From: Pocillopora damicornis | Lineage: Eukaryota | Assembly (NCBI RefSeq): GCF_003704095.1 | Contig: NW_020843834.1 | Coordinates: 186,001 to 250,000 of the forward strand | Direction: 5' to 3' | Length of the DNA stretch: 64,000 nucleotides | In this document: positions 3,337-53,952 of the stretch, one piece after another | Layout: each line of letters opens with the position of its first letter | How positions within the stretch are numbered: position 1 is the stretch's first letter | Program-made: the position numbers and the translations under genes | The notes under the pieces: generated by a model | What the model saw: only the letters and a program-made list of their open reading frames with translations | What the model was told of the DNA's origin: nothing | The model's database searches: none

Positions 3337-3556
3337 GTATGGAGACATGGTCCCGTCCACATTTTTAGGTCAGACTGTAGGAGCCATATGTTGCGTGGCT
3401 GGCGTCATACTGGTCGCTTTGCCGATACCAATAATTCAAGAGAAAGACATCTTCAAGAAACAGATGCTTAGCGTTTATAATGTGGACGATTTGCAAAAGA
3501 AAATTAAGCAAATGAGGAAAAGTGCGGACAGACCAGAGCGAGGAGATCCCTCGTGA
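3337..3556 (+). CDS. Shal: Kv gene 1, coding exon 2 (YGD, S6, short C-tail)
   Basis: Acceptor TTTTTCAG|G; completes the Gly codon, then [36 protein letters not shown]...GDPS* in frame with exon 1. Confidence 0.93.
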
Positions 3557-4110
3557 ATTTACTAACCTCGCAAACTCTAATATCGATATACGCATTCTCA
3601 TTTTCTACTTCCATACTTTGCTTGTGAATGGTTGGGAGAAGGTACTTTTTGGTCAGGGACTAAGAGAGACTTAAACCAAGAGACCGAGTCCTCTACGGGA
3701 TAAAATTTCCTAGAGTGACAAGAGGAATTCTGGAGCAGTTAAATTCGTTTTGCTTTACTGTGTTCTATGATTATTTTTAGAGAAGCTCGCGTCTCTCTCC
3801 CAATCAATGAGATGCAAAACTAATGCCATAAACGTTTTGATGGTACCTGCGTTTTCCTGCGCTTCTGGCAGTTTAATATTTGTTTTTGGCGCTTTTACTT
3901 CTCATCAGCTGCTTGCAGTAATTTCCTTTTGTCTGATTGGCTGTTGTAGGCGGTAACCTTCATTTTGTCTTCATAATAACACTGAAGTGAAACCCGGCTT
4001 GTAGGTTTTACTCCGGAAATTATCCCTATCATTTAACCTTAGAAAAATAAAACAATGTTATATTGCCCTTGTTAAACTAAAAAAATTTCATTCCTAATTC
4101 CTCTTCAAAC

Positions 4111-4203
4111 TTTGACCCTTGAGAGTGACGAGGTTATAACATCTCTACACAGTATCACCCCTGAAACTCACAGTAATGTCACCAGAATAAAGGAAATGAT
4201 TGT
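4111..4203 (-). mobile_element. Partial copy of the TTAA MITE family
   Basis: tatcacccctgaa...agaataaaggaaatgat is shared with the 55207 copy in the same orientation. Confidence 0.65.
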
Positions 4204-6403
4204 AAATTCAATAGATGAAGGATATTAAGGCGCTCAACGTTTTTGAAATTATTGTCATTTGAATTAATGAATACTTTTGCTACGGATTCAGAGCATTTGC
4301 GACGTGCAAAAGTTATTTAACTCTATTGGTATGTAAACGTCAAAGGGGTAAGAATAAGCTGAAAGGAAACAAGGATGGATTGGAACGGATGTGTGATAGA
4401 CTGGGAATTAGTTCTGCAAACCCCCCCATAAGCCCATTCGGTCAAATAATAAAAAAACACATTGTCAGGTTTAAGCTGTGGTCTGCGTTTGTCAAGATCC
4501 TTTTTCTTTTTGGCTTTGTTTTGAAAGACTTCAAGGCAAATCAAGAACGAGAGGTAAAATTGTACATGAAAAACTACAAGTGATGTTTCAAAAATTACTC
4601 GAGCCCTTTACAGAGCACTGCACATTGGCACATACACGAGCTTAATATCTAGATATACTGAGACGGGTGAGGAGGATGTTTGTCATTTTAATTTTATGTA
4701 ACAGTTTTATACCTCGTTGGTGGGTATAATACAAAATGATGGTCAAAGGATCAGTTGAAATTATATGAGAAAGTCGGCAGCCTGATCATACAGTGACATT
4801 CAATGAGTTGATTTTATTTTGGTTCATTCTCTCTAAGTTAAGCATCACATAAAGGACTCGGTTTAGGATGTTGAAATTCAGTTTTAGCGACTAGTGAGTA
4901 AAAAAGTTTACGATAGCAACAACAACTCATTATATTTGTGCCCTTTAGATTTTACAAATGATGGAGAAAAATTGAGATAGAATGGTAAAACACCAAAACA
5001 GTACTGTTGAAAATGAATAGTTTCTTCTCCTCAAAATTACCTTGGTAATGATGACGATCAAAGTGGAGATCGATGGTAAAATGTTTTTGGAAATCAAGAA
5101 ACATGCGACAAAAATAAAACTTACGTTCGTCACGGCCACTAGAGTGTAGAAAGCGATTGTGAGTATTTTTTAAGAATAAATTAGAAAATGGAAATTTAAA
5201 TATATTCATGAAAACTGGTAAAAATTTTAAAGGTTAACCAGTTATTTTTATCAGCAACGAAGCGACGTTAATTGGTGTAAAGACGCGATGTGTTAAATAG
5301 CCAACACTCTTTCTTAGTGGGAACAAATTATAACTGCAATTCTTTCTATTGTCATATTTTATTACTACCGCAGCTTTTTTGAAATAATTCGCTTAAATGA
5401 CAGAATAAAAATGATTGATTTGACGACTGAATTTCTAAGACATCAATCGCTTGTCACTTGAAAGTTCCAGAAACACATTAAATGGAGAAAAATGACAATT
5501 TAATAAAACCGAAAAAAAGCAGGCGAGGATATTACAGCTTGAGCCTTTTCCCGTTATTCAATACCGATGCCTTCTCCTGAAATTTCCTTTAAAGAAAGTT
5601 GGAATTTCTTTGAGGAAAGGTAAGAAAAAGCTTTTACCAGCTTTCAGAAAGGTGTGAAGAACAACATATTCCATTAAAGCGTGTATGTAATCGTTTATAT
5701 TTGTTCAGCTCATCATTTCGATGCTTTCTTGTCAATAGGTTATCTACAGTGGTCTCTGTTTGAGTTCAAGTTGGAGAATCGTTTTATTTTTTGACAATCA
5801 AACAAATATATTTGGATTCCATTTCTGAAGCTTCAAAGGAACATAGGCACATGGTAAGAACTTGCTTTCTTTGACTTCAGAAATTCTCTCTCATACCTGT
5901 TATGCAATATTGATGTTTTACAACTTCGCATAAACAAACGCCCCAACTAATTTCAACTCGCACATAAATTGCCACATGTTTATCTTGTTATTGCTGCAGA
6001 GTTTGCTCCTCTTGAATTGCGTGAGTTTTCAGTCTCTCTGTACTGAACCAAAACGTGTTTATCACCGAAGTGCCACGAAAGAGATAATTATTTACTGCAT
6101 TTGACAAAACGATCGGATGGCGTAAATTCGTATATAACTCGTCTATCGGTTGCTTTTTTTCTTTGCGAAGGAAAAAAACGATAAGATGAAACTCTCATCA
6201 TCGCAGATCAAATACAGAATTAACGAGAGAAATATCATTCATTCTTTACCATTCCAACAGGAAAATTTTGGTATATACAACACTATTTTTCCACGAAAAT
6301 TAGAAAATGTGTTTTAGCGCCGTCAAACAAACGAGGAAGTCATAACTCTCCATCAATTCTGAATTATGCTGAATATTTAGTCCATCGCTTTTTTCAAACA
6401 CAC

Positions 6404-6406
<3 letters not shown>

Positions 6407-6442
<36 letters not shown>

Positions 6443-51335: not shown

Positions 51336-51800
51336 CAGTTGAACCCCGGTAACTCAAATTGCCAAGTGAAATTTAAATTACTTCGAGTTATTGGGGTCTC
51401 GAGTTATAAGGGTTTTAAATAAAAAGACCAGAAACACTTGATTAAAGAGGTTTTATACTTATACATGTTTTATTGTGAGATTTCTAGCAATGTAAGAGTA
51501 CAAAAACGAAAATGAAATCGAAAAAAGGTCAATTTGTCATAACAATAAATAAGTTTATATGCAATCTTCCGGTGCAAAATTTTATGGTTCATTAGTCCGC
51601 GAAAGTGAAAGTCGAGTTATCGAGGGTAAAATTACAAAGTAACTGAAGGAAAATAAAAATTGCCTCGAGTTCGCGGGGTTTCGAGTTAGAGGGGTTAAAA
51701 TTATAGTAAATATATGAAGCAAATCCAAGGGAAATCAGTTTTGCTTCGAGTTAGCGGGGAATTCGAGTTACCGAGGGTTCGAGTTATCGGGGTTCAACTG
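51336..51800. mobile_element. MITE, Tc1/mariner (pogo/Tigger-like), 465 bp, TA target duplication
   Basis: TIRs CAGTTGAACCCCGGTAACTC / GAGTTATCGGGGTTCAACTG; TA on both sides (51334-35, 51801-02); about 8 internal TCGAGTT motifs. Confidence 0.88.
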
Positions 51801-51910
51801 TAGTTGTTTTTGACAACTATGCTTTTGTTGCAGACTAACTACAAGGATCAGCCCATGTCAAAAACATTAGTCAAAGAAAACCCTTGCAAAGGTACCTGAA
51901 GGCTTGATGA

Positions 51911-52965
51911 ATGACACTCCAGTCTAAAAATAGACACAGCAAGTTAAGAACAGAGAGACTCGACAAAAAAATAACGATCAATGTCAGCGGTCGGCGTTTT
52001 TGTACGTGGGATAGCACGTTGAAAAAGCATCCAAATACTCTGTTAGGAAGCGATGCGATCAAAGGGTACTTCGACAATGACAAAAATGAGTACTTCCTGG
52101 ACAGAGACCCTCACATGTTTCGTTACATTCTCAACTACTATCGCGATGGAAAACTACATTATTCCTACGACGACTGCTTCGGAGCTTTCAACGAAGAACT
52201 GAGTTTTTACGGAATCGAAGCTGATAATCTAAATGAATGTTGCTGGGAGGAATGTTACAATCTCTCCAAGAAAATTTGTTCTAAAGATCAAGAAGTTTCG
52301 AAGTGTTCCTGCAGTGAGCCAGTTCCACGAAAATCTTTCCTTCGAAAATTTTTCTGGAACCTTCTCGAAAACACAGAAAATCCGCCACGAGTAGGAAGAT
52401 ACATTCAAAGCTTTCTCGGTATTCTCATATATATTAGTGTTGTAGGTACAATCGTCGAGACTGAGAGGTGCTGTAAAGATAAAACTTGCGAAGAAACATA
52501 CCCTCGCTTATTTTTTGCTGTGGATGCGTTCTGCATGATTCTCTTCACCGCTGAATACATCTTTAGACTCTACGCCTCTGAAAACCGTCTTAAATTCATC
52601 ATTAACAAGATGAACATCGTGGATTTACTGGCAGTTACGCCTTTTTACGTCATTCTAATATTCAATCATTTCTCTCAGGACTCTTCGTCCGCGGTGGAGA
52701 ACGCGAGCAGTCTAAATGTCCTGCGCATGCTCCGAGTTTTTCGCATTTTCAAGCTCTCACGTCATTCGAAACACATGAGGCAGATGGGAAGGGCGTTAAA
52801 ACGCGCTATCGTCGACCTAGGGTTCCTGTTCTTTGCATTTCTGTTGACGAACATGGTATTTTCAAGCGTGCTATACTACATCGAACAAATGGAGGCACAG
52901 AAGACTAAATTCAAGAGTATTCCAGACAGTATGTGGTACACCATTATTACTATGATGACAGTGGG
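51911..52965 (+). CDS. Shal: Shal/Kv4-family K+ channel subunit, gene 4, coding exon 1; spliced product about 414 aa
   Basis: T1 (INVSGRRF...FLDRDPHMFRYILNYYR; H-YSYDD-C-x20-CC), S4 LRMLRVFRIFKLSRH, pore IPDSMWYTIITMMTVG; donor GG|GTAAGT (intron 52966-53762). In-frame TGA TGA directly precede the ATG; candidate acceptor CAG at 51833. Confidence 0.95.
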
Positions 52966-53762
52966 GTAAGTTCTCTTCATTATTACTTGCCAGTGAAAGG
53001 TGTAAATTTTAAATCCTTTTCTCTCATCAAAAAAGTGGCCTCGATTTCTAAAGAGTCAACTTTGACCATACTCTCGGACGAACTCTGGGAGGCTCAGACG
53101 ATAACTTCGATAGTTACTCATCCCTGAGGGAAAGCGAACTAATTTTCTGCTCTATTCCTATCAAAAGGATCTAAATGAATGTTGCAGTACTTCTTCCATG
53201 ATTCGAAGTAAAAATAATATGCCCACTTGTTGCAATCCAAACCATTATACTGCTTCATTCTACAAATTACTGCTCGTAATAACCTTATATTACGTATATG
53301 CGTTTGACGCACTGAATTCTAAGAAAATCTCACATGACCGAAAACCGCTTTTTGGTGTGTAAATTGAAATAGTGAAAAAGGATGCTTTGATAAAAACGAC
53401 CCTACTTTCAAATGCCCTAGTTTGAGCCAAAAATATGGCTGACGTGACGTGACGTGACGTCCCGTAAAAACAGTCTATCGTTGGAAATTTAATTCCAGAC
53501 CAATTACAATATCATTTTCTTAGCTGATTTCAAAATTGTGAGTTCGATGTTAGGAAGCTACTTCCGAGATACCCGAAGCCTCTGGTCTAAAAGGAGGATT
53601 GGTACAAAGACTTTGTGATAGGCACTATTTTTTTGTATTCTTGAAATCAAACACGGCTCCCGTAGCTGCGTCTCGCACTTCTCATTTTGAAAGCGAGCGT
53701 TTTAAGAACACAAAAGTGGCTTGTTAAATAAGACAACTGAAAAATGTTATTCTGCTTTTCAG

Positions 53763-53952
53763 GTATGGTGACATGATTCCTATCACTGATCTGGGAAAAA
53801 TTTTGGGTTCGTTATGCTGCCTCTCAGGTATCATCATGTTGGCTCTTCCAATACCCATAATACAGGAAGGAAGCGCAGAAGTCAGAGAAAAAGAACAACA
53901 ACAACAAAGCGGCAACAACAATGGCAAGAATGACAGTAACACTCAACAATAA
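53763..53952 (+). CDS. Shal: Kv gene 4, coding exon 2 (not in ORF track)
   Basis: Acceptor CTTTTCAG|G; manual translation [62 protein letters not shown]. Confidence 0.92.

Follow-up and report, generated by a model that had tools for sequence, protein, structure and literature searches.

The stretch of DNA analysed here, 64,000 nucleotides of contig NW_020843834.1 of the coral Pocillopora damicornis (assembly GCF_003704095.1, positions 186,001 to 250,000 of the forward strand; hereafter the window), carries four tandem genes of the Shal (Kv4) family of potassium channels, referred to as g1 to g4. A preliminary description had reported that all four rewrite the canonical S6 gate PVPVIVSN to PIPI[I/L/M]Q[E/D]. 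A six-frame scan of the whole window, together with spliced transcripts or proteins, confirmed the four gates, PIPIIQEK at 3422, PIPILQEK at 27617, PIPIMQDK at 36489 and PIPIIQEG at 53848, all on the + strand. A fifth match to P[IV]P[IV][ILMV], at 37848 on the - strand, was dismissed because it is surrounded by stop codons and has no channel context. Each gene consists of two exons, a first of 1.05-1.24 kb of coding sequence that runs from T1 to S5 and the pore helix, and a short second that encodes YGD, S6 and the stop. The GT-AG intron between them interrupts the TxGYG filter codons and measures 909, 1589, 2379 and 797 bases in g1 to g4, respectively. The predicted proteins of 449, 481, 454 and 414 residues are 43-46% identical to one another and 42-45% identical to alpha Shal. 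The features are as follows.

1298..2427, + strand: g1 (ShalR3c ortholog) exon 1, with T1, S1-S5 and the pore helix up to the filter (Pfam; ortholog rows SpShalR3c/AdShalR3c by eye; tree)
3337..3556, + strand: g1 exon 2, with YGD, S6, gate PIPIIQ (3422-3439), a 38-residue tail and the stop (spliced proteins P0050/P0053/P0054, 99% identical)
24783..25942, + strand: g2 (ShalR3a = NvShalR3 ortholog) exon 1 (Pfam; rows AdShalR3a, NvShalR3)
27532..27817, + strand: g2 exon 2, with gate PIPILQ (27617-27634) and a 60-residue tail (splice joint in 1/4 RNA runs)
32790..34024, + strand: g3 (ShalR3b ortholog) exon 1, with filter MTTGYG (Pfam; row SpShalR3b)
36404..36533, + strand: g3 exon 2, with gate PIPIMQ (36489-36506) and the stop 8 residues past the gate (splice joint in 4/4 RNA runs)
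51911..52965, + strand: g4 (ShalR4 ortholog) exon 1 (Pfam; row SpShalR4)
53763..53952, + strand: g4 exon 2, with gate PIPIIQ (53848-53865) and a 28-residue tail (splice joint in 4/4 RNA runs)
2237..2281, + strand: g1 S4-S5 linker, from Arg at the Kv4.2 G309 position to Asp at the E323 position (alignment; coordinates hand-counted)
25752-25796, 33843-33887 and 52772-52816, + strand: S4-S5 linkers of g2, g3 and g4, with the same pattern (His in g4; alignment; coordinates hand-counted)

All of the first exons contain BTB_2 and Ion_trans by Pfam, and the S4 charges, the T1 zinc motif and the K+ filter (TLGYG, TVGYG, TTGYG and TVGYG in g1 to g4) are intact in all four genes. The zinc motif reads HX5CX20CC, the form of the Kv2-4 T1 zinc motif. 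Such a site has been described as restricted to Kv2-4. The alpha-type hydrophobic N-terminal segment is absent from g1-g4, and the tails are short. In the pore helices (near 2410, 25925, 34007 and 52948), the first Thr of TT[LV]GYG is replaced by Ile in g1 and by Met in g2-g4, and g3 additionally carries Thr at the [LV] position; this first Thr is retained in the other five non-alpha Shal genes of the genome.

RNA contigs from four runs, chosen among 18 listed, cross the predicted exon joints and continue through the gate in every run for g3 and g4 and in one run for g2; the other three runs leave g2 uncovered, which says nothing on its expression. For g1, the database proteins P0050, P0053 and P0054 match 446-447 of the 449 residues and carry PIPIIQEKD. 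No alternative exon giving a canonical PVPVIVSN, which would have refuted the preliminary description, was seen in the RNA contigs of g2-g4 or in the spliced database proteins of g1. Within the g4 gate codons one RNA run shows two differences, at 53859 and 53862, both synonymous. Together with the open frames, the GT-AG introns, the spliced RNA and the orthologs in corals and anemones, they make a gene-prediction artefact or decaying pseudogenes exceedingly improbable. The 20 kb before the window and the 10 kb after it contain no additional Shal gene. RNA contigs from several runs also extend over some 2.7 kb past the g2 stop (28187-30915) with no long + strand frame, representing either a long 3' untranslated region or a separate non-coding transcript. 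The contigs of all four runs share a loose 5' end at 51832, pointing to an upstream non-coding g4 exon. Short high-copy repeats at 27270-27430, within the g2 intron, and at 51700-51800 attract many unrelated RNA contigs.

The genes belong to a lineage already described. The catalogue of Lara et al. 2023 (PMC9989356 File S1) lists AdShalR3a with PIPILQEK, AdShalR3b with PIPIMQDK, AdShalR3c with PIPIIQEK and SpShalR4 with PIPIIQEG, and matching of its rows by eye assigned g1 to ShalR3c, g2 to ShalR3a, g3 to ShalR3b and g4 to ShalR4. By accession labels, the ShalR rows of one species share a scaffold in Acropora, Exaiptasia and Stylophora. NvShalR3 (KP219393), with the gate PIPILQ, is listed as 'Regulatory, Kv4 subfamily' by Pisupati et al. 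2018 (PMC6279357 Table S1), whose logo of ten NvShalR genes gives Q 0.6 and E 0.4 at position 6, and V 1.0 for control alpha subunits. With orthologs of identical gate catalogued and NvShalR3 classed as regulatory, the finding is already known: the motif, the genes and the question of 2:2 versus 3:1 stoichiometry have been published for cnidarian Shal regulatory subunits (PMC6279357, PMC9989356), Pisupati 2018 discussing both stoichiometries for a jellyfish PVPIIQ subunit (PMC6279357). The same orthology supports the heteromer-only class proposed in the preliminary description.

A tree of 41 rows (no Kv3 rows), built on an alignment that ends before S6 and is hence independent of the gate, separates a Shal set of 35 rows from Kv1 and Kv2 at 100/99 and places all four genes in one 17-row clade (support 99/96) with NvShalR2, NvShalR4 and a Nematostella R3c-like protein. 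The gate is thus one inherited trait by common descent and not four independent rewrites; its sharing is not chance, yet not four separate events, and the conservation across divergent paralogs from which selection had been argued is explained to that extent by ancestry. In the unconstrained tree the alpha clade has Shal2 beside it (93/94, unstarred). This establishes neither a single origin of the polar gate for all nine non-alpha genes nor two, with Shal2 apart from the rest, and a tree with all non-alpha Shal in one clade is not rejected (p-AU, the P value of the approximately unbiased test, 0.366). The canonical alpha features, a PVPVIV-SNF gate and the conserved N-terminal segment, occur in none of the four window genes. 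Neither do the marks of the vertebrate Kv5/6/8/9 subunits, Kv2 ancestry and loss of Pro3: the ancestry is Shal by the tree, and Pro3 is retained in 4/4. The Nematostella protein P0057 (XP_048588074.1) is a g1/ShalR3c ortholog with the gate PIPIIQEKD, 68% identical, and matches none among the 12 Nematostella Shal rows of File S1; the ShalR cluster is likely conserved in Nematostella too. A homolog search restricted by region, meant to find further ShalR proteins with S6, brought up 9 close relatives only and none additional; the 150 rows of a profile search came mostly from other Kv channels, with three further readable Q/E gates and one incomplete.

Across the genome, window included, the Shal complement amounts to ten genes, one alpha and nine non-alpha. 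Position 6 of the gate is Gln in six and Glu in three of the nine, and neither residue occurs there in the 21 other Kv gates read (30 of the 33 S6 matches in the genome). Both hinge prolines are kept in all nine. An acidic residue at position 7 is found in 4/9, the window genes only, so that of the conserved Gln plus acidic residue first proposed, the polar position 6 stands, widened to Gln or Glu, and the acidic neighbour does not. Exon 1 of the alpha gene is 100% identical to protein P0121, whose gate is PVPVIVSNF. The alpha gate was taken from P0121 because the assembly yielded no S6 exon (0 matches to the gate in a DNA pattern search, and none by protein search); a 100-base N gap lies between alpha exons 1 and 3 at the expected site of the S6 exon (L061:6928-7027, G000:C4198), and an assembly gap probably accounts for the missing exon. 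The alpha gene and a Shal2-like gene with the gate PAPVLE stand head to head, about 17 kb apart (G000:C4198:83744-111033), and R8-like and R10-like genes tail to tail (G000:C1500:102661-110549).

A register check places the Gln of g1-g4 at gate position 6, equivalent to the Shaker V478 seal, as had been proposed. Two features had been overlooked, the loss of the S-N-F segment that follows the gate and the matching changes in the S4-S5 linker. The Val-to-Ile changes do not disrupt the gate: PIPII is compatible with alpha function, since the Kv2.1 alpha gate is PIPIIV and Kv4.2 V402I:V404I, which has the same PIPI, gives large currents (PMC2638201). Shaker homomers with V478D, F481A or F481D fail to mature and S479D works (PMC2233862); in Kv4.2, V406A abolishes the current and F409A leaves little of it (PMC2638201). 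From these mutants, the disruptive changes in g1-g4 would be those at position 6 and in the following S-N-F, and the acidic residue at position 7 would be the best tolerated among them. An AlphaFold2 model built from a 12-sequence alignment (mean predicted local distance difference test score, pLDDT, 54.6; S6 <50) is uninformative on gate geometry.

In the published view, that of PMC6279357 included, gate changes in R subunits reflect relaxed selection and meet no barrier against reverting, and they are a marker and not the cause of the regulatory phenotype. The nine non-alpha genes suggest otherwise. Among 194 columns that do not vary across 16 alpha Kv4 proteins, the alpha residue is lost from all nine at 13, and only two of these keep to a single chemical class, namely gate position 6 (Q/E) and the position of Kv4.2 G309 in the S4-S5 linker, which is basic (R/K/H) in 9/9. 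In a simulation that starts from Gln on the nine-gene tree, all nine genes stay Q/E with a probability of 0.12% at the average rate and 2.4% at half that rate. Q/E in 9/9 against the 0.1% expected at the average rate argues for constraint and not relaxed selection, and polar position 6 does look constrained. We extended the comparison to 20 non-alpha rows of File S1, taken by name and read by eye (all 11 of Nematostella, 4 of Renilla, 2 each of Rhopilema and Sanderia, 1 of Hydra; coral and Exaiptasia rows, seen through motif searches only, were excluded). In these rows position 6 is Q/E in 19, with no reversion to Val; NvShalR7 alone differs, with Leu in a fragment that contains unknown residues. 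Three rows have lost the first Pro and retain Gln. The linker position is basic in 18/20 and Gly in none, and the four alpha rows keep both Val and Gly. Of 381 fetched proteins, 304 could be assigned at >=50% identity; the linker position is basic in all 70 R-type proteins that could be matched (of 74 assigned, 4 escaped the pattern) and Gly in all 160 matched alpha-type proteins (of 162 assigned). The E323 position is Asp in 58/58 members of the window subclade and Glu in 159/160 of the alpha type; in g1-g4 both members of the Kv4 inactivation coupling pair are altered, E323 to Asp and V404 to Ile. The linker change is unmentioned in the literature searched, which did not extend to the primary cnidarian Shal papers, and 'S4-S5' is absent from Pisupati 2018. 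What goes beyond that literature is Q/E at position 6 in 9/9 non-alpha genes, travelling with a Gly-to-basic linker change in 9/9 and, in g1-g4, with the altered coupling pair.

The window genes can be set beside several named systems. ShalR3a/R3b/R3c/R4 of other cnidarians (PMC9989356) and NvShalR3 (PMC6279357) are one-to-one orthologs with the same gates, differing in species only. The jShal-gamma subunit of Polyorchis (Jegla and Salkoff 1997, as cited in PMC6279357 and PMC3519636) shares Gln at position 6 (PVPIIQ) and, as cited, is a heteromer-only partner of Shal alpha, a likeness predicted for g1-g4. It differs in its Val at position 2, its place in another ShalR branch and a reported N-type inactivation. 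Peculiar to the window genes in this comparison are V2I, E323D and the changed pore-helix Thr. Mammalian Kv5.1, Kv6, Kv8 and Kv9 combine heteromer-only logic with an altered S6 gate, as the window genes are predicted to do, but they are Kv2-derived, of separate origin, and have lost Pro3, with mostly an aromatic residue at position 6, whereas g1-g4 keep both prolines and have Gln there. With the canonical alphas (NvShal1, Kv4.1-4.3, P0121) the genes share T1 with its zinc motif and the S1-S6 core, and with the alpha gene of their own genome the filter-codon intron; the PVPVIVSNF gate, Gly309, Glu323, the hydrophobic N-terminal segment and the long C terminus of the alphas are missing or changed in all four.

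We consider it probable that g1-g4 are expressed tandem Kv4/Shal duplicates of the known cnidarian ShalR lineage which are silent alone, co-assemble with the single canonical Shal and alter its gating. Their placement in the regulatory (heteromer-only) class is suggested by the ortholog classification and by the homomer mutants. Homomers would fail, and the subunits would join alpha Shal through T1, with Gln at the seal and the S-N-F loss presumably tolerated in only one or two subunits per tetramer. Polar position 6 may have arisen once in the stem lineage and then been held by purifying selection. In Kv4.2, a contact between E323 in the linker and V404 in S6 drives closed-state inactivation. 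Because both faces of this contact are changed, the main heteromer effect would fall on inactivation and closing. Kv4.2 V402I:V404I slows low-voltage inactivation about 14-fold, from 1.28 s to 17.4 s, and leaves 36% of the current after 1.5 s compared with 4% (PMC2638201), which makes a more sustained current the best guess, and most likely the outcome, for heteromers of the PIPI subclade; cnidarian Kv4 channels include delayed rectifiers (preprint 10.1101/2024.12.09.627618). KChIP grips the extended cytoplasmic S6 helix and the N terminus of Kv4.2 (PMC8566240), and these have no counterpart in g1-g4, so that KChIP-type control would likely act through alpha only. We tentatively propose, at somewhat less than even confidence, that the ShalR gate is a selected second gate design and not drifted debris: the Q/E seal and the basic linker residue would have persisted jointly from a time before corals and jellyfish diverged, the tandem R3/R4 genes adding Ile and Asp at Val404 and Glu323, and together these would retune or uncouple closed-state inactivation in regulatory subunits only, giving an asymmetric, possibly 2:2, Kv4 channel.

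Several observations weigh against the reading of g1-g4 as silent partners that alter alpha Shal gating, with position 6 held by selection. The simulated probability of all nine genes staying Q/E rises to 13.9% at quarter rate and to 10.5% under the fitted rate spread, and the site, slow as it is, cannot be proved slower than transmembrane sites in general, whose ordinary constraint may be all that it shows; the 70 R-type and 160 alpha-type proteins include many close relatives. The Shaker and Kv4.2 scans, in the parts consulted, contain no Gln or Glu mutant at position 6. Kv4.2 G309A and E323A favour the closed-inactivated state and V402I:V404I and N408A oppose it (PMC2638201), and as these opposing mutants are all homomers the net heteromer effect is uncertain. 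The jellyfish PVPIIQ subunit is described as having fast N-type inactivation, so that N-terminal parts may dominate. The cnidarian regulatory phenotype is taken here from later papers' citations of the original recordings, and no electrophysiological recordings from coral ShalR genes were found in the literature searched.

In an alternative account the gate is a marker only: self-incompatibility, probably of T1 (for which no sequence signature is known), came first, drift under relaxed selection followed, and Q/E was tolerated and frozen with no role in gating. Such an account could plausibly be right, if short of an even chance. It is the two-step model in print, since restated; ShalR genes vary at positions 1-5 and 7-9, and a slow site would keep Q/E with a probability of 0.10-0.14. 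The account sits less easily with the persistence of Q/E through 9/9 own genes and 19/20 File S1 rows, across anemone, sea pansy, hydra and two jellyfish, and with the rows that lost the first Pro while Gln stayed and Val never returned. A further suggestion, which we regard as less likely than not, holds that the polar gate is kept since a diagonal 2:2 heteromer conducts, two small polar side chains standing in for two valines, and thereby fixes 2:2 and not 3:1. The jellyfish PVPIIQ subunit has been predicted to work 2:2, and fixation of 2:2 would select against harsher gate changes (PMC6279357); retention of both hinge prolines in 9/9 own genes, unlike Kv6-9, fits this. However, a proline is missing from some relatives, the failure of 2:2 channels in Kv6.4 has been put down to a hydrophilic cleft across the pore, and ShalR subunit counts are absent from the literature searched, as PMC6279357 itself says for the jellyfish subunit. 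That the subunits instead make channels of their own, homomeric or R-only, in which the gate is different and polar, is compatible with the intact S4 charges, T1 zinc motif and GYG filter in 4/4, and only some Nematostella ShalR genes have been cloned (the R1 and R3 rows with KP accessions), the rest being classed by clade. We judge it very unlikely, given that the direct g2 ortholog is classed regulatory (PMC6279357), that position 6 and 9 homomer mutants fail in Shaker and Kv4.2, and that g3 ends 8 residues past the gate.

Other frames in the window include an intronless 478-residue frame at 56139-57575 (+ strand). It contains several hydrophobic segments, its C-terminal half is rich in Cys and Asn, it has no Pfam match, and its best Atlas match (0.84, XK-related cluster) offers a weak lead only. 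Ser/Pro-rich open frames at the right window edge (63495-64000) and beyond (L066:2-1126) are part of a neighbouring gene.

The residual value of these genes lies in a testable disagreement with the published relaxed-selection view, Q/E being held across Cnidaria with a linked S4-S5 change. If the gate does have a role in gating or stoichiometry, they would be natural tools for learning how the subunits share in Kv4 closed-state inactivation, and how corals derive many currents from one alpha Shal gene. Should the gate be a selected design, the contributions of single subunits to closed-state inactivation would become testable in a natural asymmetric Kv4 channel.

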